Source: a virus (Duplodnaviria; Heunggongvirae; Uroviricota; Caudoviricetes). From it: a stretch of 64,000 nucleotides of DNA. The stretch covers positions 38,321-102,320 of IMG/VR virus record IMGVR_UViG_3300028797_000098; one strand, written 5' to 3'. A program made the position numbers and the translations under genes. The first letter of the stretch is position 1, and every line of letters begins with the position of its first letter. Positions 1-48,834 of the stretch are shown here, piece by piece. Below the pieces are notes generated by a model. It was not told the origin of the DNA and searched no databases. It saw nothing but the letters and a program-made list of their open reading frames with translations.

Positions 1-1497
1 GAACGCCGTGGCCTCTCCTTTATTGGCTATCTCATTGTAAAGGGTAGCCCGAATACCACCCAGTCTGCAGATATTGACACCCTTATCAGCCTTGGCTTTG
101 AAGTTCCGGAACACCATGTTGTTGAACATGTTGTGCAGTTCACCGCAGTTGCCGAAGGCATGCGTGAACGCCGCTTTGAACAGGCCTATCCGATTGACGG
201 TGTGGTCATCAAGGTGAACGACAAGAACCGTCAGCCGGAACTGGGCTACACTGCCAAGTCCCCGAACTTCTATCGTGCTTACAAGTTCCCGCCCGAGGAA
301 AAGGAAACCGAACTCGTCGATATTGAACCGTCAGTTGGCATGTCCGGTGCAAATACACCTGTATGCATCGTCAAACCAGTACATCTTGCTATGACTACGG
401 TCTCCCGCATTTCTGGACATAACTGGGATACCGTTGAATATCTTGGCCTTTACAAGGGATGCCACGTGGTCATCCGTAAGGCCGGTGAGATTATTCCGGA
501 ACTTGTTAAGTGTGTTGAAACAGGACGAAGCAAGGATGACTATGAAGTCATTCGCGACCAGTATGATCGTCATAAACCGGAACCGATTCCACACGTCGAG
601 CCGTATAATGGACTAACCGCCGGCGAACGCTACATGCGCCCGAAGGTCTGTCCGTTCTGCGGTGCTGAATTGAAATATGCGGTGAACGCCGAAGGTCGTG
701 AATTGGTTGCTTGGATTTGCGACAATGAAAACTGTACGTCCCAATTTGTGTTGAAACTTGCAAATTTTGCCTCCCGTGACTGCATGAACATCATGGGTGT
801 GGGCGAAAGCATGGCCGAATTGCTTTTCGAGGCGGGTAAGGTCCGTTCCTTTGACCAGCTCTACACGCTTACCAAGGAAGACTTGGTTGGCCTCGGCAAC
901 ATCCGTGAAAAGAGCGCCGTGAAGATTATTGCGGCAATCGCGAAGACCAAGGACAACTACCTGCATCAGCTTATTGAAGGGTTCTCCATTCAGGGGCTCG
1001 GACATCAGGCGTCTCCGGTGGTTGCATCCTGCGTGTCTAAGGCGGGCGGCTTCAGGTCCTTCGTGTCCTCTGAACCTGGAACCTCCGCCAAATTCTTGGG
1101 TGATTTCGTCGACTTTGCAAAGGAAGGGGGCGTAAGCGATATCATCATGACCCGTTTCGTCACGTTCATTAACCAGAACAAGGAAATGATTGCCAAGATG
1201 GTTGAGCTCGGCGTGGCCCAGAAGGTCAAGGAAGCCCAGAGCATGAAACTTGCTGGAAAGGTATGCATCATGACCGGTACGTTCTCCAAGCTTGACCGTG
1301 ACGTGTTCAAGGATATGGTAGTGTCCAACGGGGGTACAATCTGCTCTTCCATTACGAAGAAGTGCAACCTTGTGCTCCTTGGCGACAATGCCGGCCCGAA
1401 GAAGATTAAGGCTATTGATGAGTATCAGAAGGCCGGCCAGAAGATTGATGTGTACACCCCTGAAACATTGGATGAATTCTTGAAACTGTTGGACTAG
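1..1497 (+). CDS. ligA: NAD+-dependent DNA ligase (LigA-type), 5' end outside window
   Basis: Frame 1 is open from nt 1. Cys4 zinc finger (VCPFCGAEL...WICDNENC), HhH region and C-terminal BRCT-like segment (KVCIMTGTFSKLDRDVFKD...NLVLLGDNAGPKKIKA) in LigA order. Confidence 0.8.
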   Translation, partial: ERRGLSFIGYLIVKGSPNTTQSADIDTLISLGFEVPEHHVVEHVVQFTAVAEGMRERRFEQAYPIDGVVIKVNDKNRQPELGYTAKSPNFYRAYKFPPEEKETELVDIEPSVGMSGANTPVCIVKPVHLAMTTVSRISGHNWDTVEYLGLYKGCHVVIRKAGEIIPELVKCVETGRSKDDYEVIRDQYDRHKPEPIPHVEPYNGLTAGERYMRPKVCPFCGAELKYAVNAEGRELVAWICDNENCTSQFVLKLANFASRDCMNIMGVGESMAELLFEAGKVRSFDQLYTLTKEDLVGLGNIREKSAVKIIAAIAKTKDNYLHQLIEGFSIQGLGHQASPVVASCVSKAGGFRSFVSSEPGTSAKFLGDFVDFAKEGGVSDIIMTRFVTFINQNKEMIAKMVELGVAQKVKEAQSMKLAGKVCIMTGTFSKLDRDVFKDMVVSNGGTICSSITKKCNLVLLGDNAGPKKIKAIDEYQKAGQKIDVYTPETLDEFLKLLD

Positions 1498-1501
1498 CAA
1501 G

Positions 1502-1852
1502 ATGCGGAATCTCGGACAGACAATGATGCGCCATGGATACCAGGCGACTTTCATCAAGGTGGACTGTTATGGAAATCTCGCCCTGCTGTATGCCATCATG
1601 GATGAACGCCATATCCAGATTTGCGATCATGTCTGGGTCCGGGTGGGCCCATGGTGCGAACAACTGGAACCTGGGTCGGTGATAACATTCACTGCGGTCC
1701 CAATCAAGTATGTAAAACAGAATCAGCATACGACCCATCAGCTTGAAGTCGATGTTACCCTGAGTGACATCGAGGACATGCGAAAGGTGGGTGAAATTGA
1801 AATACACAAGGTGGAATACGAGCTACCGGAGGAATCGGATGACCAAGGATGA
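1502..1852 (+). CDS. hypothetical protein
   Basis: 116-aa ORF packed against neighbours. Confidence 0.4.
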   Translation: MRNLGQTMMRHGYQATFIKVDCYGNLALLYAIMDERHIQICDHVWVRVGPWCEQLEPGSVITFTAVPIKYVKQNQHTTHQLEVDVTLSDIEDMRKVGEIEIHKVEYELPEESDDQG

Positions 1853-2090
1853 TTTTACCAAGCGCCTGATTGAACTGGGGTTCACGCATGACGGCAATGA
1901 TTTTTCAAAGGATATCCTGGTGTTTCGTCAGAATGATGCCGAGAACCGGTTTGAGGTGTTCTACAAGGCTAGTTCCAATTGCCCCGAGACGCCTCCAGCA
2001 TATTTGTATGAAGAACTCTACCGAGATATGAAACAGAATGCGTTTGACTATTACGTGAATAATCTGTATGAGGCTATAAAGGAGTTTTAA
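1839..2090 (+). CDS. hypothetical protein
   Basis: ATG after GGAGG. Trimmed from the track ORF 1764-2090. Confidence 0.4.
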   Translation: MTKDDFTKRLIELGFTHDGNDFSKDILVFRQNDAENRFEVFYKASSNCPETPPAYLYEELYRDMKQNAFDYYVNNLYEAIKEF

Positions 2091-2306
2091 ATGAACGAGC
2101 ACAAAACCGCAATCATAGGCGACATTCGTAATGGAGTCTATATCAAGCTTAGTGCAAAATCTAAGTGTGTTCACGAGAAGGTTGGCAATCCGGCACCGGC
2201 TGATGATACCGGTGAACTCGTTGTTATGATTGAAAATGTGAAAACATCGGCTATCAGGTGGATTCCGGTGGAACAGCGGGTATATCTTGCAGAGGAGTAC
2301 AACTAA
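2091..2306 (+). CDS. hypothetical protein
   Basis: 71-aa ORF. Its stop overlaps the next start. Confidence 0.35.
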   Translation: MNEHKTAIIGDIRNGVYIKLSAKSKCVHEKVGNPAPADDTGELVVMIENVKTSAIRWIPVEQRVYLAEEYN

Positions 2307-5920: not shown

Positions 5921-5995
5921 GGGTTTGTAGCTCAGTTTTGGCAGAGCGCCTGCCCTGCAAGCAGGAGGTCGCGGATTCGAATTCCGCCAGATCCA
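5921..5995 (+). tRNA. tRNA-Ala(TGC)
   Basis: Cloverleaf read by eye. G3:U70 present. Anticodon loop ccTGCaa. T-loop TTCGAAT. No encoded CCA. Confidence 0.7.
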
Positions 5996-6053
5996 CTAAC
6001 GCTTGGCTCGTGAAGCCTCGCAGCAGATTGACATTTCGGATGACTTTTATTAT

Positions 6054-6129
6054 GGGCCATTAGCTCAGTTTTGGTAGAGCGCCTGCATGGCATGCAGGAG
6101 GTCATCGGTTCGAGTCCGATATCGGTCCA
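6054..6129 (+). tRNA. tRNA-Ala(GGC)
   Basis: Anticodon loop atGGCat. G3:U70 only if one nt bulges in the 3' acceptor strand. Confidence 0.55.
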
Positions 6130-6138
6130 GTACACTAT

Positions 6139-6214
6139 GGGTCATTAGCTCAGTTTTGGTAGAGCACTTCGTTCGCATCGAAGAGGTCGTCGGTTCGAGC
6201 CCGACATCGATCCA
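6139..6214 (+). tRNA. tRNA-Ala(CGC)
   Basis: Anticodon loop ttCGCat. Same 3'-acceptor bulge as the previous tRNA. Confidence 0.55.
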
Positions 6215-6218
6215 CTAT

Positions 6219-6290
6219 GCTCCATTAGCTTAACTGGAAGAGCACCCGGCTACGAACCGGACGATTGGGATTCGACTTCCTGATGGAGCA
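6219..6290 (+). tRNA. tRNA-Arg(ACG)
   Basis: Perfect acceptor GCTCCAT/ATGGAGC. Anticodon loop ctACGaa. Confidence 0.65.
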
Positions 6291-6299
6291 CTACTTTAT

Positions 6300-6373
6300 G
6301 GGACCTTAGAATACGCTGGCTAGTTCATCGCCCTTTCACGGCGGGGAACCGGGATCGACACCCGGAGGTCCTA
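6300..6373 (+). tRNA. tRNA-Glu(TTC)
   Basis: Anticodon arm CGCCCTTTCACGGCGG identical to E. coli tRNA-Glu. Anticodon loop ctTTCac. Confidence 0.7.
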
Positions 6374-6445
6374 CTAAATGGATTTTGGAGCAGTATCCAT
6401 CCGGCTTTGCCGGGAAGCAACCTAGGTTGCATCGTGCTCCACCAT

Positions 6446-6519
6446 CCTCATCTATATCAATTGGTTAGATAGCTACTCTGATAAGGTAGAGGTTCCTGAT
6501 TCGAGCTCAGGGGTGAGGA
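6446..6519 (+). tRNA. tRNA-Ile(GAT)
   Basis: Acceptor CCTCATC/GGTGAGG. Anticodon loop ctGATaa. T-loop TTCGAGC. Confidence 0.65.
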
Positions 6520-6523
6520 CTAT

Positions 6524-6596
6524 GGGTCTGTAGCTTAAGAGGAAGAGCGTCCGGTTTGCACCCGGTTGGTATGGTTTCGAGCACCATCAGTATCCA
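6524..6596 (+). tRNA. tRNA-Ala(TGC), second copy
   Basis: Anticodon loop ttTGCac. G3:U70 with a 1-nt bulge in the 3' acceptor strand. Confidence 0.5.
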
Positions 6597-6613
6597 CGAT
6601 TTTAATTCTATAT

Positions 6614-6686
6614 GCACCATTAGCTCAGTTGGTAGAGCAGTTGCCTCTTAAGCATCGGGTCCAAGGTCCGAGTCCTTGATGGTGCA
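6614..6686 (+). tRNA. tRNA-Lys(CTT)
   Basis: Perfect acceptor GCACCAT/ATGGTGC. Anticodon loop ctCTTaa. Confidence 0.65.
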
Positions 6687-6698
6687 CGAAGAAATTAT

Positions 6699-6773
6699 TG
6701 CGGTGTAGCTCAGTCCGGTCAGAGCAGCGGAATCATAATCCGTTGGTCGAAGGTTCAAATCCTTCTTCCGCAA
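6699..6773 (+). tRNA. tRNA-Met or Ile2 (CAT)
   Basis: U1:A72. Anticodon loop atCATaa. T-loop TTCAAAT. Confidence 0.6.
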
Positions 6774-6886
6774 CGATGCAGCCCGGCAGTTAAAGAATGC
6801 CGGTCCCGACAAAGATAAGGTCGGTCGGTATAAAGCGCCGAAACAACATAAGAACCTAAAGCACCGGGGGCTGCGTTAAACATTTT

Positions 6887-6960
6887 GGGGGCGTGGTGAA
6901 GAGGCTCAACACAGCGGTCTGTCTAACCGCCATTCGCGGGTTCGAACCCCGCCGCTCTCG
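6887..6960 (+). tRNA. tRNA-Asp(GTC)
   Basis: Anticodon arm GCGGT-ctGTCta-ACCGC. Acceptor with two G:U pairs. T-loop TTCGAAC. Confidence 0.55.
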
Positions 6961-6964
6961 TTAT

Positions 6965-7039
6965 ACTCGGTTAGCTCAGTTGGTCCAGAGCGGCTGCCTT
7001 ACAAGCAGCGGGTCAGCGGTTCGACTCCGTTATCGAGTA
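6965..7039 (+). tRNA. tRNA-Val(TAC)
   Basis: Anticodon loop ctTACaa. D-loop agttggtcca. Confidence 0.65.
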
Positions 7040-7048
7040 CGAAATTAT

Positions 7049-7120
7049 AGGGATTTAGGACAGTGGCTAGTCTAGCGCTCTCCAAAAGCGTCTACGGGAG
7101 TTCGAGTCTCTCAGTCCCTG
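7049..7120 (+). tRNA. tRNA-Trp(CCA)
   Basis: Anticodon loop ctCCAaa. T-loop TTCGAGT. Confidence 0.65.
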
Positions 7121-7132
7121 CGAAATTTTTAT

Positions 7133-7215
7133 GGGTGTGCCGAAGAGTTGGAGATCTTCTTCGGTCTGTAAAACCGACGGCTACGCCTTTGATGGTCCGA
7201 ATCCATCCACACCCA
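7133..7215 (+). tRNA. tRNA-Tyr(GTA), class II
   Basis: Perfect acceptor GGGTGTG/CACACCC. Anticodon loop ctGTAaa. 13-nt variable arm. Confidence 0.7.
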
Positions 7216-7226
7216 CTATTCTTTAT

Positions 7227-7299
7227 TCCACCTTAGCTCAGTAGGTAGAGCGGGCGACTGTTAATCGCCTGGTCCCACGTTCGAGTCGTGGAGGTGGAG
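7227..7299 (+). tRNA. tRNA-Asn(GTT)
   Basis: Acceptor TCCACCT/AGGTGGA. Anticodon loop ctGTTaa. Confidence 0.7.
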
Positions 7300-7306
7300 C
7301 TAATAT

Positions 7307-7382
7307 TGCCGATTAGCCAAGCGGTAAGGCGCCGCGCTCTGAACGCGGGATTCTTTCGGTGGTTCGATCCCATCATCGGCAA
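7307..7382 (+). tRNA. tRNA-Gln(CTG)
   Basis: U1:A72. Anticodon loop ctCTGaa. Unusually long 9-nt variable region. Confidence 0.5.
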
Positions 7383-7393
7383 CTAAATTTTAT

Positions 7394-7464
7394 GCACCTA
7401 TGTTGTAGTGGTAGCAAACGACCTTGCCATGGTTGAAGCTCCGGATCGTACCCGGATAGGTGCT
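7394..7464 (+). tRNA. tRNA-Gly(GCC)
   Basis: Perfect acceptor GCACCTA/TAGGTGC. Anticodon loop ttGCCat. Confidence 0.7.
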
Positions 7465-7468
7465 CTAT

Positions 7469-7553
7469 CTCGTCGTGGGGGAATTTGGTAGACCCGCCAG
7501 CTTGAGGGGTTGGTGTTGAAATACACGTGGTGGTTCGAGACCACTCGACGAGA
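7469..7553 (+). tRNA. tRNA-Leu(GAG), class II
   Basis: Anticodon loop ttGAGgg. Long variable arm. Confidence 0.6.
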
Positions 7554-7566
7554 CTAACTTTAACAA

Positions 7567-7651
7567 CGCCCAGTGATGGAATTGGGTAGACAATGCGGAC
7601 TTAAAATCCGCAGCGAGTATTCGCGTGCCGGTTCGATGCCGGTCTGGGCGA
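7567..7651 (+). tRNA. tRNA-Leu(TAA), class II
   Basis: Perfect acceptor CGCCCAG/CTGGGCG. Anticodon loop ctTAAaa. Variable-arm stem GCGA/TCGC. Confidence 0.6.
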
Positions 7652-7725
7652 CTACAAGGGACAATGAATATGAAACGAAAATACAAACGATTATGATGGT
7701 GACGACTGCCAATTCAGTCGTGTCG

Positions 7726-7798
7726 GCTCCATTAACTCAGAAGATAGAGTACCGCCCTTTTAAGGCGGGAGTCGAGATGGCGGAATTCTCATGGAGCA
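7726..7798 (+). tRNA. tRNA-Lys(TTT)
   Basis: Perfect acceptor GCTCCAT/ATGGAGC. Anticodon loop ctTTTaa. Non-canonical T-loop GGCGGAA. Confidence 0.5.
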
Positions 7799-7805
7799 CT
7801 ATAAT

Positions 7806-7876
7806 GCACCTATGGTGTAGCGGTAACACGGCAGTCTTCCAAACTGCACTCGCCAGTTCGATTCTGACTAGGTGCT
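7806..7876 (+). tRNA. tRNA-Gly(TCC)
   Basis: Same acceptor as tRNA-Gly(GCC). Anticodon loop ctTCCaa. Confidence 0.65.
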
Positions 7877-7885
7877 TTATTATAC

Positions 7886-7967
7886 CGATCTGTGGCGGAA
7901 AGCATACGCAACGCACTCAAAATGCGTCGTCCGAAAGGAATTGTGGGTTCGTGTCCCACCAGATCGA
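7886..7967 (+). tRNA. tRNA-Leu(CAA), class II
   Basis: Perfect acceptor CGATCTG/CAGATCG. Anticodon loop ctCAAaa. Long variable arm. Confidence 0.6.
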
Positions 7968-7971
7968 CTAT

Positions 7972-8056
7972 CGGCATGTGGCGTAACTGGTAGCCGCGCT
8001 GCGTTCAGGGCGCAGTGTACATTTGTACGTGATGGGTTCGAATCCCTCTGTGCCGA
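7972..8056 (+). tRNA. tRNA-Leu(CAG), class II
   Basis: Anticodon loop ttCAGgg. Variable-arm hairpin GTACA/TGTAC. Weak T-stem. Confidence 0.5.
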
Positions 8057-8061
8057 CTTAT

Positions 8062-8133
8062 GGCCCCTTAGACCAGCGGTTAAGTCACAGGATTCTCATT
8101 CCTGGCACCCGAGTTCGAGCCTCGGAGGGGCTA
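8062..8133 (+). tRNA. tRNA-Glu(CTC)
   Basis: Anticodon loop ttCTCat. T-arm CCGAG-TTCGAGC-CTCGG. Confidence 0.6.
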
Positions 8134-8137
8134 CTAT

Positions 8138-8210
8138 TGGGCCGTGGTGCAATTGGTAGCACGCAAGATTTTGAGTCTTGATGTTGTTGGTTCAAGTCCA
8201 GCCAGCTCAA
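8138..8210 (+). tRNA. tRNA-Gln(TTG)
   Basis: U1:A72. Anticodon arm CAAGA-ttTTGag-TCTTG. Confidence 0.6.
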
Positions 8211-8213
8211 TTC

Positions 8214-8296
8214 CCCGAGGTGGCGGAATGGTAGACGCGCCTGCCTTAGGAGCAGGTGCCCGGAAGGGCGTGCAGGTTCGAGTCCTGTCCTCGGGA
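8214..8296 (+). tRNA. tRNA-Leu(TAG), class II
   Basis: Perfect acceptor CCCGAGG/CCTCGGG. Anticodon loop ctTAGga. Long variable arm. Confidence 0.6.
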
Positions 8297-8305
8297 TAAT
8301 GATAT

Positions 8306-8380
8306 GCGCTCTTAGCCAAGCCTGGTCTAAGGCAAGTGGTTGCAACCCACTGATCGGCGGTCCGAATCCGTCAGAGCGCT
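8306..8380 (+). tRNA. tRNA-Cys(GCA)
   Basis: Perfect acceptor GCGCTCT/AGAGCGC. Anticodon loop ttGCAac. Confidence 0.65.
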
Positions 8381-8394
8381 CGAAAGATTTTTAT

Positions 8395-8467
8395 GGGGCT
8401 GTAGCTCAGTTGGTAGAGCGGCAGGTTGAAGCCCTGCGCGTCGGAGGTTCGACTCCTCCCGGTCCCA
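8395..8467 (+). tRNA. tRNA-Phe(GAA)
   Basis: Canonical GTAGCTCAGTTGGTAGAGC D-arm. Anticodon loop ttGAAgc. Confidence 0.7.
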
Positions 8468-8473
8468 CTATTT

Positions 8474-8561
8474 GGAAATGTCCCATAATTGGTTATTGGC
8501 CCTCCTTGGAAAGGAGCGTGGTGGTGAAAGCTGCATGAAGGTTCGAGTCCTCCCATTTCCG
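8474..8561 (+). tRNA. tRNA-Ser(GGA), class II
   Basis: Perfect acceptor GGAAATG/CATTTCC. Anticodon loop ttGGAaa. Long variable arm. Confidence 0.55.
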
Positions 8562-8568
8562 CGAATTT

Positions 8569-8655
8569 GGAAGCGTAGACCTAATTGGTAAGGCCCCCGG
8601 CCCGAACCCGGTGGTGAGGAAGTTCCTCATGTAGGTTCAAGTCCTGCCGCTTCCG
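8569..8655 (+). tRNA. tRNA-Ser(CGA), class II
   Basis: Perfect acceptor GGAAGCG/CGCTTCC. Long variable arm. Anticodon reading CGA is tentative. Confidence 0.45.
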
Positions 8656-8659
8656 CTAT

Positions 8660-8743
8660 GGAAGCGCACGAGATTGGCGACTCAAGCGGACTTGAAATCC
8701 GTGGTTCCGCAAGGGCTTGGGGGTTCGACTCCCTCCGCTTCCG
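8660..8743 (+). tRNA. tRNA-Ser(TGA), class II
   Basis: Same acceptor as the previous tRNA. Anticodon loop ctTGAaa as in E. coli tRNA-Ser. Confidence 0.55.
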
Positions 8744-8752
8744 CGAAAGTAT

Positions 8753-8825
8753 TCCGACATAGCTCAATTGGTAGAGCAGTTCATTCGTAATGAACCGGTT
8801 GCTCGTTCGACCCGAGCTGTCGGAG
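8753..8825 (+). tRNA. tRNA-Thr(CGT)
   Basis: Perfect acceptor TCCGACA/TGTCGGA. Anticodon loop ttCGTaa. Confidence 0.65.
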
Positions 8826-8829
8826 CTAT

Positions 8830-8918
8830 GGAGAGGTAGCCTAATTGGTAAGGCAGGGGCTTGCTAAGCCCCCGTGGCCCTCAAAAGCTGCTTGCAGGTT
8901 CGAACCCTGTCCTCTCCT
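8830..8918 (+). tRNA. tRNA-Ser(GCT), class II
   Basis: Perfect acceptor GGAGAGG/CCTCTCC. Anticodon loop ttGCTaa. Long variable arm. Confidence 0.55.
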
Positions 8919-8924
8919 CTACAT

Positions 8925-8998
8925 GGTGTCAGTAGCTCAATCGGTGGAGCCCTGGTTTGTGGAACCAGCTGTTGCAAGTTCAAGCCTTGTCTGATACC
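8925..8998 (+). tRNA. tRNA-His(GTG) with encoded G-1
   Basis: Extra 5' G opposite discriminator C. Anticodon loop ttGTGga. Confidence 0.65.
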
Positions 8999-9046
8999 CT
9001 AAGTCATCTGAAATGTCGCGGATTTATTCAAGCAAAAGGATACAAC

Positions 9047-9376
9047 ATGATTACGGTAGCACAGATCAACGAATTGCGCAAGGCGACCCAGGTGAGCATG
9101 CTTCTATGTAAGCAGGCCCTGGAAGCGACCGGTGGCGATTTCGATGCCGCCAAGGAATGGCTCAGGGGCCAGGGCGGCGAGGTCGCCGGTGGCCCTTCCG
9201 AGTTCGGCGTCACCCTTTTCGCCGATGGCGCCGTCAATCAGCATGGTGTCACCGATGTCTTCACCTATTCCGACGGACATTCCACCGTGGACATCCGCGG
9301 TTATAGCGGTACGACCCCTTCTACCGTATGGGCCGATTTCAGGCACCAGCTCGTATTGAGACCGGCCAAGGCCTAG
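9047..9376 (+). CDS. EF-Ts N-terminal (UBA-like) domain protein
   Basis: AAAGGA SD then ATG. MITVAQINELRKATQVSMLLCKQALEATGGDFDAAKEWLRGQG resembles the EF-Tu-binding N-terminus of EF-Ts. The remainder is unrelated. Confidence 0.5.
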   Translation: MITVAQINELRKATQVSMLLCKQALEATGGDFDAAKEWLRGQGGEVAGGPSEFGVTLFADGAVNQHGVTDVFTYSDGHSTVDIRGYSGTTPSTVWADFRHQLVLRPAKA

Positions 9377-9383
9377 TCTTTCA

Positions 9384-9459
9384 GCCGGCGTAGCTCAATG
9401 GACTTCAGAGCACTCGACTTCTAATCGACAGGTTGCCAGTTCGACCCTGGCCGTCGGCA
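9384..9459 (+). tRNA. tRNA-Arg(TCT)
   Basis: Anticodon loop ctTCTaa. T-arm GCCAG-TTCGACC-CTGGC. Followed by TTTTTT. Confidence 0.6.
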
Positions 9460-16849: not shown

Positions 16850-17482
16850 ATGATTGATAAGACTAACGACCCGCATTATCCTGTAATGCCTGGAATGGAA
16901 CTGCCCCATAACATCAAGGTGGAGGTTCATAAAGGCGAATTGGAACATTTGAAGAACCTTGCAGATACTGCACTTTCCGATTTTGCACGTATGGAAGAAG
17001 AAAATGCCACATTAAGGAAGATGATTGCGTCATATCAGCGCGAATCTGCGACCGGTTCCATGTGGATTTCAATGGATGAACGCGAACCTACAGAAGAAGA
17101 TGGTCTTCTTTGTTTGCTATGGGAAGACGGAACTCCGGATGTGGGGCAATACTATAATGATGTTGGTCGGATAGTTACCCATGGCGACCGTTGCCTTGAT
17201 GTGGTAACTGGGGATGAGGGACATTCGATTGAATGGTGGATGCCGGTGCCTCCCCATCCGAACAAAATTAACCCACCGGTTGCGGTTGCTGAGCAGGATC
17301 CTAAGCCGGCATATGTCGTTGTACTGAAAATGATGGATTCTTGGTGCCTGGTGGGCAAGAAGGTGTTCATGCGGAAGGATGATGCGGAGAATTTCTGCAC
17401 ATACGCACAGGATAAGGTGCAAAAAATACTGGATGTGGAAGAGGTCAAGATATTTGACCGATATGAACTGCCGAAGGATTAA
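16850..17482 (+). CDS. hypothetical protein
   Basis: 210-aa ORF. Confidence 0.45.
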   Translation: MIDKTNDPHYPVMPGMELPHNIKVEVHKGELEHLKNLADTALSDFARMEEENATLRKMIASYQRESATGSMWISMDEREPTEEDGLLCLLWEDGTPDVGQYYNDVGRIVTHGDRCLDVVTGDEGHSIEWWMPVPPHPNKINPPVAVAEQDPKPAYVVVLKMMDSWCLVGKKVFMRKDDAENFCTYAQDKVQKILDVEEVKIFDRYELPKD

Positions 17483-17488
17483 ACAGTC

Positions 17489-17512
17489 AGGTTGCCGCAA
17501 GGCAACCTTTTT
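17489..17512 (+). terminator. rho-independent terminator
   Basis: AGGTTGCC-gcaa-GGCAACCT followed by TTTTT. Confidence 0.7.
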
Positions 17513-17523
17513 GCTACATTTGG
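17508..17523 (+). promoter_or_regulatory. promoter element TTTTGCTACATTTGGG
   Basis: Contains TAcaTTTG. 3 nt before the ATG at 17527. Confidence 0.5.
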
Positions 17524-17526
17524 GAC

Positions 17527-18762
17527 ATGAAGATTGAAGAAAAGTACATTTCCGAGACAGTCAAGAAGGGTATCGGCTTGCTCGCCGAAATCCATAAGCG
17601 CGGGCACGAGGCATACATTGCCGGTGGCGCCGTGCGCGACCTCGTAATTCGCCAGTTGCACATGGTGTCGGGTTCCGAAAATGAAGTTCCCGTGCATGAC
17701 GTGGACATCGCGACCAACATGCCCATCGAGGACCTGAAACTTGCCTTCCGCTGCGACTCCAATAACGGGGAAGCGCATGGCACGATCCTGGTCCATTATG
17801 ATGGCCTGGTGTTTGAGGTGACCCAGTTCCGCGTCGATGGCAACTATTCCGACGGTCGCCACCCGGATTCGGTGAATTTCACCAAGTCCTTCAAGGAAGA
17901 CTGCGCCCGGCGTGACTTTACCATTAACGCTATGGGTCTGGACAAGGACCTCAATGTCATCGACTATTTCGGCGGTATTGACGACCTGGTATTCCGTCGT
18001 CTCCGTGCAGTGGGCAACCCGTATGACCGCATGACCGAGGATTCCCTCCGTATCATTCGCGGTATGCGATTTGCCGCCCGTTTCGGTTTCGTGATTGACG
18101 ACCTTACCAAGTTGGCCATGCGCAGCCGCCTGCACCACATCAAGAGCGTGGCGATGGAGCGCATCCATGACGAATTGCACAAGTGTGCCGAGTATGGCGT
18201 GCTGCCTTTCGTGAACATGATTGGGTACCTGTCCGAGTATGGCATCGGATCAATTTTCCAGGATGTCGGCTTCTGCTTTGACCGTCAGCGCATGCTCGTG
18301 GAATCCTTGGTACGCGGAAACGTGGATGCCGATACAATCATGTCGGTATTCATCTGCATGCTGCCGAAGAAGTCCATGGAATGGCTCCGCTGCACCCGTA
18401 AGGAAATCCGCATGGCCGAGCGCATCAGGGATGGCCTGATTGGCATCATGTCCGGAAAGTTCGGTCTTGCCGATGAGCAGTTGCTCTATTCCGTTGAACT
18501 GGCCGCTTCCCCGGAATTCAGGCTCATTACCAACCTGTACCGCGAACTGAACCCGTATGGTACCGCCCTGGGTGATGGTGCGGCGACGATATGCGATGTC
18601 ATTGCGCGTTGCAGGAAGGGCGTACCCGAATACGGAAAGCAGGTTGCCGCGGAAGGTATCCAGGAAGGACCGGAATTTGGCAAGCGCCTGCGGGAAGTCA
18701 TCCTCGCCGACTACAAGAGAATCAAGGATGAGTGGGACAAATCAATGAACAGGATGTGGTAA
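17527..18762 (+). CDS. cca: tRNA nucleotidyltransferase (CCA-adding enzyme)
   Basis: Class II head domain GGAVRDLVI...DVDIAT, then RIIRGMRFAARFGF. Confidence 0.75.
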   Translation: MKIEEKYISETVKKGIGLLAEIHKRGHEAYIAGGAVRDLVIRQLHMVSGSENEVPVHDVDIATNMPIEDLKLAFRCDSNNGEAHGTILVHYDGLVFEVTQFRVDGNYSDGRHPDSVNFTKSFKEDCARRDFTINAMGLDKDLNVIDYFGGIDDLVFRRLRAVGNPYDRMTEDSLRIIRGMRFAARFGFVIDDLTKLAMRSRLHHIKSVAMERIHDELHKCAEYGVLPFVNMIGYLSEYGIGSIFQDVGFCFDRQRMLVESLVRGNVDADTIMSVFICMLPKKSMEWLRCTRKEIRMAERIRDGLIGIMSGKFGLADEQLLYSVELAASPEFRLITNLYRELNPYGTALGDGAATICDVIARCRKGVPEYGKQVAAEGIQEGPEFGKRLREVILADYKRIKDEWDKSMNRMW

Positions 18763-19160
18763 TCGTGGCAAAACCTACATGGACAGAAATTAGTGAGTTC
18801 AAGGACTGGATGGTCGAGCGCGGTTATGAAACCGACCGTGACCGCACCCGTTTCAAGAAGGGAAAGGACGGGATTGCCTTGGAATTCTGGATTGGCGAGT
18901 GTGCCAACGGTTCATTCAAGTGCCTCAATGCGCAGGTTCAACTGAATTTCGTTGACACATGGTTTCATACTGCCGGCATATTCCGTACCGGGGCGTTCAT
19001 GCCGTGCAAGACACTCTCGCATGAGTATGTGCTCATGTGCGAACTCCAGCACCGCAAGATTGAACTGGAAACCGAATCCTTCTTCGCCAAGGCAAATAAC
19101 CTGATTGCCGAAACGACCGATGAAATCAAGAAAATTAACCGCGGAGCACAGAATGCCTAA
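18732..19160 (+). CDS. hypothetical protein
   Basis: 142-aa ORF that overlaps both neighbours. Confidence 0.4.
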   Translation: MGQINEQDVVIVAKPTWTEISEFKDWMVERGYETDRDRTRFKKGKDGIALEFWIGECANGSFKCLNAQVQLNFVDTWFHTAGIFRTGAFMPCKTLSHEYVLMCELQHRKIELETESFFAKANNLIAETTDEIKKINRGAQNA

Positions 19161-19992: not shown

Positions 19993-20519
19993 TCGATTGC
20001 AAAGGTAATACTCTCGAAGCAATCGAGAAGGACTGTTCCCAACCGGGGTGGTATGCTATCTATTCGGATGGGCGCCCCAATGAGGCCGTATCTCCTGCCG
20101 TAATCGCCCAGGCGCGGCTCATTCAGCCGTTTGTCCCCATCGAAATGGAGCTTTTCCCGTGTCCGGACGGTTCCGTACAGTGGGAAGATGCCGACCATAC
20201 CCTCGAAGTGTATGCCGACAAGTTCAAGTACGATGACGAGGAAGTGTCCTTCGGGGATGCGGTTGAAAAATTGAAGGCTCTTGATTACAATGAGCGCGAG
20301 TTCAAGCTGGAACTTACGTTTCCAAAGGAATTCCGCGAACATTTCCAGCGTGACCAGTTCAAGGACTCGCTTGGGAGGCTCGCGTTCGATGCACGGGAGC
20401 TCTTCAAGGAAAAGATGCTGCACAAGCCGAATACGCTGTGCACGTTGAGTGGTCTTGAAGAGGTTGAACTCATTGAGAAAATCAGGGATGCGGTCGCGTC
20501 CGGGAGGATAGTCAAGTGA
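19989..20519 (+). CDS. hypothetical protein
   Basis: 176-aa ORF. ATGA overlap with the upstream gene. Confidence 0.45.
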   Translation: MIDCKGNTLEAIEKDCSQPGWYAIYSDGRPNEAVSPAVIAQARLIQPFVPIEMELFPCPDGSVQWEDADHTLEVYADKFKYDDEEVSFGDAVEKLKALDYNEREFKLELTFPKEFREHFQRDQFKDSLGRLAFDARELFKEKMLHKPNTLCTLSGLEEVELIEKIRDAVASGRIVK

Positions 20520-34963: not shown

Positions 34964-36358
34964 ATGGCACAGATTCTTACAGAAAAGAAGAAACTTAGCT
35001 TGGCAATGCCGAACAGAAAGGGTCGTCGCAAGCCGGATGCAAGGCTCATTACGCCGGCTCTTCCGAAACAGTACAAGAAAAAGGACCCGAATAAATGGAT
35101 TATTCAACATTTGACTGCAACCGATTTATACAAGTACAGCATGGGCCAGTTGTACTTCCACAAGCACCGTAATGTACAGGCCCGCTGGGAGTTTAAACTC
35201 CGTTCCAAGGGTGTACGCCTTGATTACTTGCACGATGCAATCAATCGCGAACTCGACCACCTTTGCACCCTCCGCTATACGGATTGGGAACTTACTGGAA
35301 TTGGTAAAGTTGCACCGTGGATTGATGATGACTTCCTCCGTGAACTGAAACGCTTCCAGTTGCAGCGTGAATACATTCACTGCGAATATGATCCGGACGA
35401 TGAATGTGGGCTCAAAATCTGGGCAGAAGGCTCCCAGATGGATGTCTACTGGTTTGAAATCTACGTGTTGCAGATTGTGCAGCACCTCTACTTCGACGAC
35501 CTTGAAATCGACTGGGAAGCTTCCAAGCGTAACCTTGCCGAAGTAATCAAGAAGTGGAAGGAAGCATCCGAACGCGGCATCAAGTTTACCGTTTCTGACT
35601 TCGGTATCCGCCGTGGCGTATCCGACGAATGGAACGAATACATGGTGTCCACCCTCTTGAAGGAACTTCCGGGCGTGTTTGTGGGTACATCCAATGTGTA
35701 CCTCGCTATCAAGCTTGGTTGTAAGGCTATCGGCACTTTTGCGCATGAGCTTTACGCGGTCTACCAGGGCCTCGATGATGTAAAGCTCCGCAAGTGCCAG
35801 ACTCAGGTGTTTGAAGACTGGATGCACGAATTCGGCGGTGATCTCGGTATTGCCTTGTCCGATAACTTTGGCTTCAAGGCGTTCCTCGAAGATTTCGGTG
35901 CAGGCTCTCGTCGCGGCAAGCTCTATGCCAAGGTGTTCGATGGCTGCCGGCATGACTCCGGCAACCCGTACACTTGGGGCGAAATGCTCATTGCCCATTA
36001 CAAGAAGTTGAAGATTGACCCGGCCACCAAGGTTGGCTGTTGGAGCGACAGTCTCGATGTGGACAAGTCCATCGCCATCGCCGAGCACTTCAACCTCCGT
36101 ATCAAGATTGCCTTCGGCATCGGGACATTCCTCAGTGCTTCCATCGTGAAGTTCAAGGGCAATGCCGAGCGCAAGCCGCTTTCCATGGTCATGAAGGTTG
36201 TGAAGGTCAAGGCCCACAACGATGCACCGTGGGTTTGGGCTGTTAAACTGTCCGATTCCATCGGCAAGACCATGTGCCCCGACCAGGACCATGTGGAACT
36301 CGTAAAACGGACATTCAATTACAGCTCCATCGACGAGGTGCAGGAGGTTTGCCAGTGA
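34964..36358 (+). CDS. nadV: nicotinamide phosphoribosyltransferase (NAMPT/NadV)
   Basis: 464 aa. NAPRTase-family core resemblance (FGIRRGVS, GTSNVYLA...FAHELY). Partner of the NMNAT-Nudix gene, as in known phage NAD+ salvage pairs. Confidence 0.65.
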   Translation: MAQILTEKKKLSLAMPNRKGRRKPDARLITPALPKQYKKKDPNKWIIQHLTATDLYKYSMGQLYFHKHRNVQARWEFKLRSKGVRLDYLHDAINRELDHLCTLRYTDWELTGIGKVAPWIDDDFLRELKRFQLQREYIHCEYDPDDECGLKIWAEGSQMDVYWFEIYVLQIVQHLYFDDLEIDWEASKRNLAEVIKKWKEASERGIKFTVSDFGIRRGVSDEWNEYMVSTLLKELPGVFVGTSNVYLAIKLGCKAIGTFAHELYAVYQGLDDVKLRKCQTQVFEDWMHEFGGDLGIALSDNFGFKAFLEDFGAGSRRGKLYAKVFDGCRHDSGNPYTWGEMLIAHYKKLKIDPATKVGCWSDSLDVDKSIAIAEHFNLRIKIAFGIGTFLSASIVKFKGNAERKPLSMVMKVVKVKAHNDAPWVWAVKLSDSIGKTMCPDQDHVELVKRTFNYSSIDEVQEVCQ

Positions 36359-46654: not shown

Positions 46655-47062
46655 CTATCCTTCGCGCCGCACTATGTCTTCATATGTTTCGGCTGGTTCC
46701 GGTGGAGGATCCTTGAATCGCTCGGCACATAACCGGAGGAATTCAGACCAGTAGTCCGGATGAATATCGAATTCGGCGGAACTTCTGTCTACCTTGATTG
46801 ACACATAGACTTCCTTCCCACCTTTCGTCGTAAAGTTGCCACTGAATTTGAAAATACCATTCACTTCGCCGGTCGCTCTGCAGCTGACAGAAGTGATACA
46901 GTCCGGGAGAGACTTGTTTACCTCTACAGCAGCTTCCAAGTCTTCCTGAATCTCATCAAATGTATTCGTAAATAGTACGGAGTAAATACCCCCGTATTTC
47001 GGCTTTACCTGACAAGCTTTGTGTGCAGCTTGCGTAATTTGCTCACGAGTAACCTTGCTCAT
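46655..47062 (-). CDS. hypothetical protein
   Basis: 135-aa ORF with SD AGGAGATCC. Confidence 0.5.
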   Translation of the reverse strand: MSKVTREQITQAAHKACQVKPKYGGIYSVLFTNTFDEIQEDLEAAVEVNKSLPDCITSVSCRATGEVNGIFKFSGNFTTKGGKEVYVSIKVDRSSAEFDIHPDYWSEFLRLCAERFKDPPPEPAETYEDIVRREG

Positions 47063-47071
47063 AGGATCTCC

Positions 47072-47482
47072 TTAGTGGACAGGTTTCAGGCCGTTCTCGG
47101 TGACCCAAGCGGCATCGATGTATATCTTGCGCCTGAGGTACAGTTCTTCGAGGAACACCACGTCGGCGATGTTCCAGTTGACCGGGTAGACCCCGTCCCA
47201 TTCCGTAATTGCGTCCGCGTAGAACTCGTACCAGTCGTCGTTGAGACACCAGCATCCGAGCTTGGTATCGCAGTAGGTATAGTGCGGATAGTTGCGTTCG
47301 ATGAGTTCTATCACCTGTTTCTCATAGGATGGATCGAGCACGAGGACCGAGAACAGTGTATTGGTGTAGTCCTTGTAGTCCAAGCGCTCGTTAATCCAGC
47401 GTTGGATACGTGCCGCGCTAGTGCATGGATTCCCATCCTGGTCATGATTCATTTCCACAACACGTTCATTGTACGGCTTCAT
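47072..47482 (-). CDS. hypothetical protein
   Basis: 136-aa ORF. Confidence 0.45.
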   Translation of the reverse strand: MKPYNERVVEMNHDQDGNPCTSAARIQRWINERLDYKDYTNTLFSVLVLDPSYEKQVIELIERNYPHYTYCDTKLGCWCLNDDWYEFYADAITEWDGVYPVNWNIADVVFLEELYLRRKIYIDAAWVTENGLKPVH

Positions 47483-48012
47483 TAGATATTCCCCTGTGCT
47501 TCATTCAATGCCCTGTCAAGGCGCTTGTTCACTGTCTTGCGAGCATTCTTGATAATGCTTGCTGCTTTTTCCGCGGAAATGACGGCAAGGTTCCCGATGT
47601 CCTTGACCCGGCGGTTGATATCCACCTCATAGATGCCACCGTTCAGGTATCCTTCGGCGGACAGGTACATCATGTGCTTCGCGATGATACGGAAGCTGTT
47701 CCCGCCTTCCCACTGCAAGGCCTTCACGACCTTGTAGATGGTGTAATGCTGCCCGTGGAACGGACACTCGTCATCATCGTTCCATCCGCCCACAATGACC
47801 CATTGGTTCATGATGCGGGAGAGCATCTCGTTCACGTACTTCTTGTCCACCCCGTCAATAACGAGCTGACGCTTCTTTTTCAGGTCCTCGATCTGCTCGT
47901 CGAGTTCCTTGACCTGCTGTTCCGGGGTGGGTTTCGCCTTGAACATGACCAAGCTTTCCACCGAGTCAAGTATATTCTGCATCATTTGGGCGTCTCCTTC
48001 GATTTCTTCCAC
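47482..48012 (-). CDS. hypothetical protein
   Basis: 176-aa ORF. Confidence 0.45.
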   Translation of the reverse strand: MEEIEGDAQMMQNILDSVESLVMFKAKPTPEQQVKELDEQIEDLKKKRQLVIDGVDKKYVNEMLSRIMNQWVIVGGWNDDDECPFHGQHYTIYKVVKALQWEGGNSFRIIAKHMMYLSAEGYLNGGIYEVDINRRVKDIGNLAVISAEKAASIIKNARKTVNKRLDRALNEAQGNI

Positions 48013-48186
48013 TGGTTGAGAATCTCGTCAAATTCCTTGGCGGATTTGAGATAGTGTTGGGCGGTTAGAACATTGGGTTCTAGTTTATTGTGTGCCGCAT
48101 AGGTAATGCTTGCTACGACAGTTGCCCTGTTATATTCAATCTTCATTATAGTGTCGCTGTCATAGGCGGCAGTGCCGACATTCGTC

Positions 48187-48834
48187 CTAAACACTATTAT
48201 CATGGGTTTGTTCCTTGCAGTAGTTCACTTGTTTCATGAATTCGGCTAAGGGTACCGGAACACCTTTGGCGGGGTTGTTGGCTTTGTAGAACATGAGGAC
48301 CGAAATGTACTGGGGCGGGATGCGCTTTGCCAGCCACACCCTGTCGTTGCCCACGAAGAACTCGATGCCGTCGGCCATTGCCTGCTTGGCGTTAATCCGC
48401 ATGATGAGCGTGCGCCCCTTGCGCCTCTTGGCCACCGTTTCCGCCATCTGGGTATCGGTGGACATATGGACATACTGGCGGGCCATGGGCAGGATGCCGT
48501 CCTTGGCGATTGCCTCCACGCAGAACTCGTTGGTGCCGTGGTACAGGATGTCAGGAGGGGTCCCGGCTTCCTTCTTGATGGTCTGGGGGACGCTGTGGCC
48601 ATAGAGGGCGCGGATGCGGTCCCCTACGATTTCATGACGCTTCTTGTCGGAAGTGCGGATGATTTCTTCCAGGTCTTCCTTGGTGACCGGGCGGTCATAA
48701 TCCTTGTTCTCATTGAGGGCATGGAGGAGCTGTTCGATGGGGACGAAGCCTTCCTCATCCAGTTCCAGTTCGTATTCCCACGGTGCATGGCGCAGCGCGT
48801 AGGAGATTTCCTTTGAGAGTTCTTTCAGGTTCAT
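48187..48834 (-). CDS. kptA: RNA 2'-phosphotransferase (KptA/Tpt1)
   Basis: LSKEISYALRHAPWEYELELDEEGFVPIEQLLHAL and RHEIVGDRIRALYGHS match Tpt1 signature regions. AAGGAG SD 8 nt before the ATG. Confidence 0.7.
   Translation of the reverse strand: MNLKELSKEISYALRHAPWEYELELDEEGFVPIEQLLHALNENKDYDRPVTKEDLEEIIRTSDKKRHEIVGDRIRALYGHSVPQTIKKEAGTPPDILYHGTNEFCVEAIAKDGILPMARQYVHMSTDTQMAETVAKRRKGRTLIMRINAKQAMADGIEFFVGNDRVWLAKRIPPQYISVLMFYKANNPAKGVPVPLAEFMKQVNYCKEQTHDNSV

Follow-up and report, generated by a model that had tools for sequence, protein, structure and literature searches.

Among the commonest last-line defences of bacteria against phages are NAD+ depletion and tRNA cleavage. Jumbo phages carry gene networks that have been interpreted as countering such tRNA-cleaving and NAD+-depleting defences, bringing together tRNA genes, a CCA enzyme, RlaP, KptA, macro-domain and Nudix proteins, an NAD+-dependent ligase and NAD+ salvage enzymes (PMC7824862, PMC9503650). 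Here we describe a gene set of this kind in a 64-kb stretch of viral DNA (positions 38,321 to 102,320 of IMG/VR record IMGVR_UViG_3300028797_000098), called the window below, with positions counted from its first letter. Its inventory matches the NAD+/ADP-ribose and RNA-repair networks described in jumbo phages by Iyer, Burroughs, Aravind et al., and is in itself what a specialist would expect; the poly(ADP-ribose) glycohydrolase (PARG) and the Preiss-Handler links are leads rather than surprises. In the two surveys cited above, NadV goes with NadM or NadR in an amidated route, and PncB, PncA, NadE and a NadD-like-Nudix fusion are unmentioned; PARG figures there only as one macro-domain class, and their ligase, 2H enzyme and polynucleotide kinase (PNK) were not found in the window. 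According to PMC13464706, experiments have established three phage NAD+ routes, NARP1, NARP2 and NARP3; nicotinate and the NadD and NadE steps are used in none of them. Preiss-Handler gene clusters have been described in gut jumbo phages (PMC11662467).

A sequence-only reading of this DNA had proposed an NAD+-centred gene network that forms a self-sufficient tRNA repair toolkit. The genes that it listed are real, lie where it had placed them or close by, and look catalytically intact, some of them under corrected names. The unusual concentration of enzymes that use or rebuild NAD+ or process ADP-ribose, beside tRNA and RNA-repair genes, is borne out by the gene identities. We read these genes, with a probability of about 0.65, as a guild of modules for counter-defence and self-maintenance, transcribed separately and linked by NAD+ and ADP-ribose as their shared currency, and not as one self-contained pathway. 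What carries this reading is the identity of the genes, their intact catalytic motifs, the structure of their units and the recurrent clustering of the families in other giant phages.

Performing profile scans, we covered 94 curated open reading frames (ORFs) with Pfam, the key ORFs with NCBIfam and the first half of the window with PHROGs; source contigs extended the searches to 10 kb beyond each window end. Most ORFs were scanned against Pfam and PHROGs as linker-joined pseudo-proteins, for which the best stretch per family is reported and E-values are slightly inflated; the 'Serglycin' Pfam matches are artefacts of the GS linkers. The PHROGs scan of the first half gave hardly any matches. 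Gene starts are heuristic. The genes that spend or rebuild NAD+ include the following.

1..1497, plus strand: LigA, NAD+-dependent DNA ligase, C-terminal 498 amino acids (Pfam DNA_ligase_OB, DNA_ligase_aden, BRCT and HHH_5; NCBIfam LigA, 311 bits)
34964..36358, plus strand: PncB-type nicotinate phosphoribosyltransferase (TIGR01514; NAPRTase and NAPRTase_N; PDB matches)
26939..28018, plus strand: NadD-like (HIGH-superfamily) mononucleotide adenylyltransferase fused to a Nudix domain of the ADP-ribose-pyrophosphatase type (Pfam CTP_transf_like and NUDIX)

The OB, adenylation, BRCT and HhH domains confirm LigA, the complete form of which has 727 amino acids and starts upstream of the window (L007, 7813-9996). 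The gene at 34964-36358 had been taken for NadV, a NAMPT, and this name did not survive. The protein passes the NAPRTase equivalog model TIGR01514 (337.2 bits against a cutoff of 269.55, profile positions 1-397 of 399), reaches 379 bits on NCBIfam NF003704 (cutoff 379), matches NAPRTase and NAPRTase_N in Pfam and not NAMPT_N, and has only NAPRTases among its PDB matches (top 1YIR, 212 bits). It carries a GTFAH motif at 257-261, the His of which we take to be the phosphohistidine, as in E. coli PncB. Since the salvage enzyme is PncB and not NAMPT, the route is the deamidated Preiss-Handler one.

The adenylyltransferase-Nudix fusion, called NMNAT-Nudix before, is present with complete motifs ((H/T)xxH as GGAFDPLTVAH, SxxxxR as SSTAVR, and the Nudix box); what did not stand is the kind of adenylyltransferase, which is NadD-like and not NadM-like. 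Its best full-length profile is NCBIfam NadD, at 70.8 bits over residues 3-190 and under the cutoff of 167. Only from about residue 150, over the Nudix half, does the fusion align with NadM-Nudix models (PRK05379 series), with 2QJO/2QJT and with phage NadM-Nudix proteins; the NrtR model also matches only this half, and the PDB matches there are to the Nudix domains of NrtR and NadM-Nudix. In other phages the gene stands between PncB and NadE, which supports the predicted NadD role. The fusion is rare: 36 homologue clusters were found in 5.8 billion proteins, nearly all on metagenome contigs.

This gene pair resembles NARP2 of Vibrio phage KVP40 (NadV and NatV) in its two-gene logic of a phosphoribosyltransferase plus an adenylyltransferase-Nudix fusion, a likeness seen here at the level of the genes. 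Unlike in NARP2, the transferase is a PncB-type NAPRTase and the adenylyltransferase is NadD-like, NadM proteins aligning over the Nudix half only. The product would therefore be deamido-NAD, needing NadE, and nicotinamide would first need PncA. Neither PncA nor NadE was found in the window or 10 kb either side.

Some observations concern the surroundings of these genes. A TnpB gene (28485-29702; IS605 OrfB with a Cas12f-like TNB domain) lies just downstream of the NadD-Nudix gene and has no counterpart in the related contig L018. TnpB also occurs near the NAD module of another giant phage, L033, and a second TnpB-like ORF (63106-64000), an SSO2105_N match in the source contig, is cut by the right end of the window. 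One 310-residue protein on an ENA contig (P0013) joins the first ~90 residues of the HD protein described below straight to the linker and Nudix half of NadD-Nudix, without the rest of the HD protein, g32 or the adenylyltransferase domain (compare 25837-28018 of the window); this one sequence may result from faulty assembly. In the long unit of PncB, the ORF at 38301-38882 has a weak N-terminal match to Pth2 peptidyl-tRNA hydrolase (26.8 bits against a cutoff of 23, ~30 residues aligned).

Two further enzymes connect NAD+ and ADP-ribose with RNA.

48187..48834, minus strand: RNA 2'-phosphotransferase Tpt1/KptA with a complete active site (PF01885 and alignment to CthTpt1)
19153..19992, plus strand: bacterial-type PARG with a DUF2263/TIGR02452 macro domain (PF10021, TIGR02452, structure-sequence alignment)

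KptA matches PF01885 at 135.5 bits (cutoff 26) over profile positions 4-176 of 177, covering the RNA lobe and the NAD+ lobe, and C. thermocellum Tpt1 (CthTpt1, 6E3A) at 193 bits; on the NCBIfam equivalog models it scores 192 bits, under the cutoff of 231. The essential tetrad of CthTpt1, Arg18-His19-Arg68-Arg121, is known (PMC6333775). All of its residues are identical in the phage protein, as R25, H26, R76 and R129 (numbering of the 225-aa ORF) in the contexts LRH, DKKRHEI and ARQYVHMS, and the phosphate-caging Arg139/Arg140 pair and the HGT and YGHS residues are kept too. The KptA of the sequence-only reading is thus present, with its R-H-R-R tetrad intact on alignment. The same gene occurs on 7 metagenome contigs. 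KptA may remove RNA 2'-phosphates or may cap 5'-phosphate ends, and the window does not discriminate between these predicted activities.

The macro-domain protein was confirmed as a member of DUF2263/PARG, scoring 108 bits on PF10021 and 182 bits on TIGR02452 (cutoff 50). Aligned to D. radiodurans PARG 5ZDA (114 bits) and to T. curvata 3SIG, it keeps the catalytic signature as GGG-x7-QEE (family GGG-X6-8-QEE; GGGVVTGSSAQEE aligned to the D. radiodurans PARG signature) and the diphosphate-binding glycine-rich loop (GAFGCGAFRNDP aligned with GAWGCGVFRNDP of 5ZDA). Bacterial-type PARGs remove ADP-ribose from RNA 2'-OH and 5'-phosphate ends, and they are the most active erasers on 5'-phospho-ADP-ribosylated RNA made by a KptA-like enzyme (Lu et al., PMC11833690). 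Among the PARGs of that study the Deinococcus enzyme is the closest to the phage one, and its gene lies between those for a ligase and an HD/PNK protein, in the operon DRB0100-DRB0099-DRB0098 for an RNA/DNA ligase, PARG, and an HD phosphatase with polynucleotide kinase (PMC11833690). The phage set is like this operon in having a bacterial-type PARG in the midst of enzymes that repair nucleic-acid ends; of the solved structures, that of DRB0099 is the one most closely related to the phage PARG, and an HD phosphohydrolase is found in the phage set too. Unlike in Deinococcus, the partners of the phage PARG are a CCA enzyme and RlaP, and the HD protein lies in another unit and is of the CCA-enzyme type.

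From the biochemistry of bacterial-type PARGs and the position of the gene between the CCA enzyme and RlaP, our best guess for the phage PARG is RNA (plausibly tRNA) de-ADP-ribosylation, a better one than processing of the KptA by-product. The latter function, proposed before, is less likely, this being the job of 2H enzymes and Poa1p-type macro domains: Poa1p-like macro domains are the known Appr-1''-p phosphatases, PARG-type ones are not, and a phage example of the Poa1p type is now known (preprint 10.64898/2026.01.28.702374).

The tRNA genes and the enzymes that would act on tRNA ends are as follows.

5921..9459, plus strand: array of 33 tRNA genes (ARAGORN)
17527..18762, plus strand: class II CCA-adding tRNA nucleotidyltransferase (PolyA_pol head, 99.9 bits, and RNA-binding domain)
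20814..22160, plus strand: RlaP-family Pol-beta nucleotidyltransferase (PF10127, 61.6 bits against a cutoff of 23)
25837..26661, plus strand: stand-alone HD-domain phosphohydrolase (g31), like the helical body/HD region of class II tRNA nucleotidyltransferases

ARAGORN found 34 tRNA genes and not the 35 counted before, namely the 33 of the array and tRNA-Gly(ccc) at 32710-32782. They cover 19 amino acids, Pro being absent, and 27 were confirmed by the Rfam tRNA model at gathering score. On inspection of the 3' ends, none of the 34 encodes the 3' CCA. The CCA-adding enzyme, already named in the sequence-only reading, is present with class II head motifs (GGAVRD, DVD and EDxxRRDFTINA); it reaches 219 bits on the NCBIfam CCA model (cutoff 290), PcnB-type models match too, and CCA addition is its likely role. 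As the phage tRNAs are CCA-less, the enzyme would be needed simply to mature them, whatever else is repaired, and this is a simpler explanation than a repair toolkit.

RlaP-family enzymes add 1-2 NMPs to damaged RNA 3' ends (PMC12776372). The Pol-beta nucleotidyltransferase at 20814-22160 holds the catalytic GS...DxD motif of this family (GSQSFG...SDVD), and its identity can be refined to RlaP; an ORF that had been singled out for comparison with RNA-repair profiles turns out to encode an RNA-repair enzyme. The assignment of the HD protein comes from its motif, fold and context, as phmmer gave no match among PDB sequences. In E. coli, the HD domain of the CCA enzyme acts both as a 2',3'-cyclic phosphodiesterase and as a phosphatase, which makes 3'-end healing by the phage HD protein a reasonable expectation.

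In the tRNA genes, C-TA or C-GA usually comes after the discriminator base, and four genes are for tRNA-Ala, two of them with the anticodon UGC. Directly after the array, three consecutive radical SAM genes and then a CoaE-like P-loop kinase occupy 9876-13348. The second and third radical SAM genes are weakly viperin/MoaA-like, below cutoffs; the arrangement of radical SAM genes and kinase is kept in the related contig L027, and it recalls viperin-kinase pairs.

The CCA, PARG and RlaP genes lie together with three small genes in a recently exchanged stretch.

17207..22175, strand not assigned: recently exchanged 4.97-kb block holding CCA, g23, PARG, g25, g26 and RlaP (95.6% DNA identity to L018)
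18732..19160, plus strand: g23, 142 aa, between the CCA enzyme and PARG, kept in L018 (93-100%) and L027 (42%)
19989..20519, plus strand: g25, 176 aa, its start overlapping the PARG stop codon
20516..20761, plus strand: g26, 81 aa, with a 4-nt overlap with g25 and 98.8% identical in L018

Compared with IMGVR_UViG_3300037454_000941 (L018, 224 kb), the alignable flanks of this block are about 70-81% identical and much of the flanks is unaligned; proteins are 93-100% identical within the block and 35-77% outside it. The right edge lies 15 nt past the RlaP stop codon. The contrast between the 95.6% identity and the diverged flanks, together with this edge, points to a recent exchange as one unit. 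The gene order of the block is kept in the more distant L027 (PARG 67%, RlaP 88% and g25 51% identical), where CCA is split into two ORFs. An adjacency of PARG and RlaP beyond this clade was rejected, as it is missing in L019, L020, Lak phages and Bacillus phage G. We also rejected g25 as an obligate enzymatic partner, its homologues occurring alone in other phages without PARG or RlaP. The AF2 model of g25 is confident and has no significant fold match, and phmmer found no match for it among PDB sequences; g23 has no Pfam or PHROG match.

We then compared the gene neighbourhoods of these families in other giant phages. The neighbourhood evidence comes from a handful of contigs picked by homology and is not a statistical test, and the locus searches used exact 8-residue seeds, by which diverged relatives are missed. 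Among 50,697 GenBank phage records, tblastn relatives number 98 for KptA, 20 for PARG and 13 for PncB, and the sets barely overlap. All five distant homologues of the NadD-like-Nudix fusion that we inspected (33-38% identity, on contigs of 30-57% GC) lie beside PncA of the isochorismatase family, four of the five beside a PncB 56-70% identical to that of the window, and three with NadE. In L031, PARG-NadD-Nudix-PncA-NadE are contiguous, with a PARG 53% identical to ours. L033 has the order RlaP-metallophosphatase...Rnl1 RNA ligase-PncB-x-NadD-Nudix-PncA-NadE; its ligase, of the T4 Rnl1 type, abuts PncB, and its RlaP (43% identical) lies about 4.4 kb upstream of the Rnl1 gene. L032 shows LigA...PncB...NadD-Nudix...PncA...NadE, with LigA 4 kb from PncB. 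In L034 and L035 the CCA gene (34%), a homologue of the same HD protein (36-37%) and Band7 are divergent from PncB-NadD-Nudix-PncA, and Thg1 is nearby.

Bacillus phage G (gp273-gp283) encodes Nudix-PncA-PncB-KptA-NadD-NadE in a single run with KptA inside. It is like the window in having KptA with a deamidated NAD+ pathway, the two being physically linked there. Unlike in the window, the cluster of phage G is contiguous and complete, Nudix and NadD are separate proteins, and PncB is of another subtype (no tblastn match). In phage G the Nudix protein gp273 shares 36% identity with the Nudix half of the fusion, and PARG has a tRNA array and a second macro protein beside it.

This recurrence of the families together (L031-L035 and phage G) is the strongest support for the NAD+-centred grouping of the sequence-only reading. 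The rarity of the individual families and their repeated clustering support, as far as genomic comparison goes, more than a chance grouping.

Near the CCA/HD/PncB cluster of L034 and L035 we also noticed homologues, 30-32% identical, of two ORFs of the window: 29785-30384 (~190 aa, with an N-terminal DIENT HAD-like motif) and 47482-48012, the 176-aa neighbour of KptA. Their products may be further members of the guild. A pair made of a 120-aa ORF (30763-31125) and an SPFH/Band7, HflK-like gene (31602-32408) recurs beside the L034 cluster, with the small ORF 38% identical.

The same neighbourhoods bear on the possibility that KptA and PARG work as writer and eraser. KptA would cap RNA or DNA 5'-phosphates with ADP-ribose, blocking exonucleases or ligation, and PARG would remove the caps, either as a regulation or as an aprataxin-like proofreading of KptA side-products. 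Tpt1/KptA enzymes cap 5'-phosphate ends, and the bacterial PARG SCO0909 was the most active eraser tested on 5'-phosphate ADP-ribosylated RNA made by a KptA-like enzyme (PMC11833690; see also PMC6582358 and PMC12678800). Both enzymes are intact in the window and both occur in phage G, but in the window about 29 kb separate the two genes, which belong to different units and are read from opposite strands. Where PARG clusters, it does so with genes of NAD+ synthesis (L031) or with those for CCA and RlaP, never directly with KptA; viral-contig scans found no contig with relatives of both, a weak argument given the exact 8-residue seeds. We hold this pairing to be quite improbable.

The sequence-only reading had also assigned the set to the Trl1/Tpt1 type. 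In such a self-sufficient healing-and-sealing scheme, cleaved tRNAs would be opened to a 2'-phosphate, 5'-phosphorylated and then ligated, KptA would resolve the 2'-phosphate junction with NAD+, and the macro protein would clear the ADP-ribose cyclic phosphate. Its Tpt1 step is well represented: as in fungal and plant Trl1-Tpt1 splicing, where Cpd1 and Poa1p clear the by-product, there is a catalytically intact Tpt1 orthologue with an identical tetrad that has NAD+ as co-substrate, and RlaP, the CCA enzyme and the HD phosphohydrolase are at hand. Reviews moreover propose KptA, 2H and macro repair in jumbo phages (PMC9503650, PMC7824862). It is the other steps that find no support. Using Pfam, NCBIfam, PHROGs and motifs, we found no RNA ligase (Rnl families or RtcB), Trl1-like ligases included, in the window or 10 kb either side, and so none in the neighbourhood of RlaP, in line with what the earlier reading had noted for the window; a regex scan of motifs I and IV gave no credible KxDG/EGxxK set. 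The same span has no 2H phosphoesterase or CPDase (no family match and no convincing double HxT/S motif) and no clear Pnkp or other polynucleotide kinase. A P-loop kinase does exist at 12629-13348, the only one in the window, but it is CoaE-like and belongs to the unit with three radical SAM genes that is kept in L027.

In L033 an Rnl1-type ligase adjoins the PncB/NadD-Nudix module and RlaP, but it is Rnl1-like, and Rnl1 of the T4 system joins 3'-OH/2'-OH ends and leaves no 2'-phosphate. A seed-based scan of viral contigs with this L033 Rnl1 gave no relatives, and tblastn with the Rnl1, Thg1, metallophosphatase, PncA and NadE of the related loci gave no match in the window or flanks. The macro protein is PARG-type and not Poa1p-type, PARG-type domains not being known Appr-1''-p phosphatases (preprint 10.64898/2026.01.28.702374). 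The ORFs 53657-55612 and 47482-48012, which had been put forward for comparison with RNA ligase, Pnkp and phosphodiesterase profiles, match no such profile: the first has no match anywhere and the second a spurious coiled-coil match only. The regex scans, which took in HAD and P-loop motifs as well, gave no leads beyond a weak HxS/HxT pair in 37196-38299 and the DIENT HAD-like motif in 29785-30384, both of which lack profile support. As RNA ligase, 2H, PncA and NadE were not found, a self-sufficient Trl1/Tpt1 pathway is not shown, and neither half of that description found support in the window with its 10-kb flanks; we consider such a scheme unlikely. T4 tRNA repair (Pnkp and Rnl1, with the RlaP homologue NrdC.11), the purpose of which is to counter anticodon nucleases, is alike in having an RlaP-family enzyme in a tRNA-supplying phage. 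Unlike in T4, there is no Pnkp or Rnl1 in the window, and T4 repairs without NAD+ or KptA.

The layout of the genes was worked out from a repeated motif. TTTGCTAYAT occurs 16 times (about 4 expected) between 9506 and 63554, often after a GC-rich hairpin and usually 7-20 nt upstream of a start codon; examples of the hairpin with the motif are at 17489-17519, 20772-20806 and 29796-29822. It stands upstream of the CCA, RlaP and HD genes and the KptA unit, with a hairpin and TTTGCTACAT just upstream of the CCA gene and a hairpin and TTTGCTATAT upstream of the RlaP gene. It resembles a phage-specific promoter, or a junction of terminator and promoter, marking the transcription units. A sigma-70 promoter scan gave 31 hits against 26 expected, not above chance, and was not used. 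From overlapping stop and start codons and the hairpin-TTTGCTAYAT motif we draw these unit boundaries.

First gene CCA at 17527, plus strand: unit CCA-g23-PARG-g25-g26
First gene RlaP at 20814, plus strand: unit RlaP-dUTPase-g29
First gene HD protein at 25837, plus strand: unit HD protein-g32-NadD-like-Nudix-g34
Plus strand: long unit containing tRNA-Gly and PncB
46655..49724, minus strand: unit g71-KptA-g68-g67-g66 (ORFs and codon scores), preceded by a TTTGCTACAT motif at 49741-49732

The partner genes in the KptA unit have no Pfam match; a homologue of g68 lies near the NAD/CCA cluster of L035. The neighbourhoods of KptA in Dickeya and Clostridioides phages were uninformative, every neighbour being annotated as hypothetical.

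Several of these facts weigh against reading the genes as a guild. They are scattered across 49 kb and both strands, make up at least four units and have many unrelated genes between them; the window and its flanks yielded no RNA ligase, and as PncA and NadE are missing, the genes of the window alone cannot complete NAD+ from nicotinamide. The adenylyltransferase domain is under the NadD cutoff and its PDB sequence matches are weak (PPAT the nearest at 35 bits, NaMNAT 20 bits), and the role of the HD protein is based on fold similarity and gene context. The PARG homologues of L019 and L020 (44-49%) stand amid replication, chaperone and glycosyltransferase genes with no NAD or RNA-repair neighbours, and the PARG and RlaP matches of Lak phages are hundreds of kb apart. 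The synteny with the close relatives L018 and L027 may reflect common descent rather than function.

Taken to the end, such facts would mean independent accessory genes in variable giant-phage regions without functional coupling, the network being a grouping by shared cofactor. The dispersed layout, with radical SAM, dUTPase, TnpB, Band7 and R2K ATP-grasp genes in between, fits this, as do the varying PARG neighbourhoods in L019, L020 and Lak phages. The region is also mosaic and high-identity blocks are common in it, as in L027, where radical SAM g13 (91%) and RlaP (88%) stand amid neighbours of 40-60%. Yet the clustering is tight and repeated in five other lineages of very different GC and in phage G, and the individual families are rare among the 50,697 phage records. 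We give little credence to a complete lack of coupling. The guild is in the window in a dispersed version, interrupted by the TnpB element beside NadD-Nudix and without PncA and NadE. The window itself is a partial form of the toolkit, in which a Trl1/Tpt1-type pathway is not demonstrated.

For the guild, we infer the substrates, the order of steps and the anti-defence role as follows. LigA would spend NAD+ in joining DNA, and KptA would spend it in removing RNA 2'-phosphates or in ADP-ribosylating 5'-phosphate ends. PncB would make nicotinate mononucleotide, which the NadD-like domain would adenylylate to deamido-NAD. With PncA and NadE not encoded in the window, the conversion of nicotinamide to nicotinate and the final amidation have to be supplied by the host or by genes in other parts of the phage genome. 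NAD+ rebuilt in this way could sustain LigA and KptA and offset host NADase defences. PARG would strip ADP-ribose from macromolecules, most plausibly from RNA 2'-OH or 5'-phosphate ends, and the fused Nudix would split free ADP-ribose into AMP and ribose-5-phosphate. The CCA enzyme would mature and repair the ends of the 34 CCA-less tRNAs, RlaP would restore lost 3' nucleotides, and the CCA-type HD phosphohydrolase probably clears 2',3'-cyclic or 3'-phosphate ends.

A bolder version, which we put forward tentatively and hold to be doubtful, is a fourth phage NAD+ route. Here a Preiss-Handler module of the phage-restricted NadD-like-Nudix and PncB, with PncA and NadE when complete, would be mechanistically coupled to the erasure of RNA ADP-ribose. 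PARG in the mobile CCA-PARG-RlaP cassette would strip ADP-ribose from tRNA 2'-OH or 5'-phosphate ends, where it might come from host ART toxins or from side-reactions of KptA; the fused Nudix would recycle the freed ADP-ribose, and CCA, RlaP and HD would rebuild the tRNA ends. In a variant, PARG would open 1''-2' glycocyclic ADP-ribose immune signals, which have the same ribose-ribose bond.

In the literature searched, we found no description of a conserved PncB/PncA/NadE module with the NadD-like-Nudix fusion at its hub, of the recurrent physical association of such a module with PARG, CCA and CCA-type HD, RlaP/Rnl1 and LigA, or of a mobile CCA-PARG-RlaP block. The PncB-NadD-Nudix-PncA-NadE module is a concrete candidate for a further phage NAD+ route. 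Lying repeatedly beside PARG, CCA/HD, RlaP/Rnl1, LigA or KptA, it suggests that in phages the supply of NAD+, the removal of ADP-ribose and the repair of tRNA are managed jointly. It would also offer a natural context for the RNA de-ADP-ribosylase activity that was lately discovered in bacterial-type PARGs.

The DNA of the window belongs to the accessory region of an uncultured jumbo phage from gut or rumen. It is densely coding, predominantly on the plus strand, with a GC of about 48%. Megablast found no near-identical DNA among the 50,697 GenBank phage records. Several metagenome contigs carry verbatim copies of its genes, among them JGI 3300031998 Ga0310786_10000071 (160 kb) and another of the 0.2-1 Mb class; the JGI samples that carry them are presumably rumen communities. 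The assignment to an uncultured jumbo phage follows from this occurrence on metagenome contigs, from viral relatives in IMG/VR on contigs of 184-380 kb, and from distant protein matches in huge gut phages (Lak phages and 600-kb 'uncultured phage' records) and Bacillus phage G.

Other observations touch none of these subjects. A Peptidase_U49 gene of the phage itself lies ~9 kb upstream of the window start (L007, 1065-1892); we take this to be the family of the E. coli Lit protease, which cleaves EF-Tu. The ORF at 43396-44145 strongly matches R2K clade family 2 ATP-grasp (116 bits), presumably a Cdc123-like family predicted to modify proteins, and has no obvious link to the NAD genes. A low-GC segment at 56000-58400 (37.6% against about 48%) may be a recently acquired island; it holds paralogous ORFs of ~225 aa on opposite strands (56382-57059, plus; 57711-58388, minus) with an SWK(G/A)R motif and poor codon scores. 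Finally, the 651-aa ORF at 53657-55612 and a 336-aa HExxH protein (58921-59931, minus strand), neither of which has a database match, have in common a cysteine motif, F..F...VC..F.C..A.PLQ.GF..LCE, internal in the former and N-terminal in the latter.

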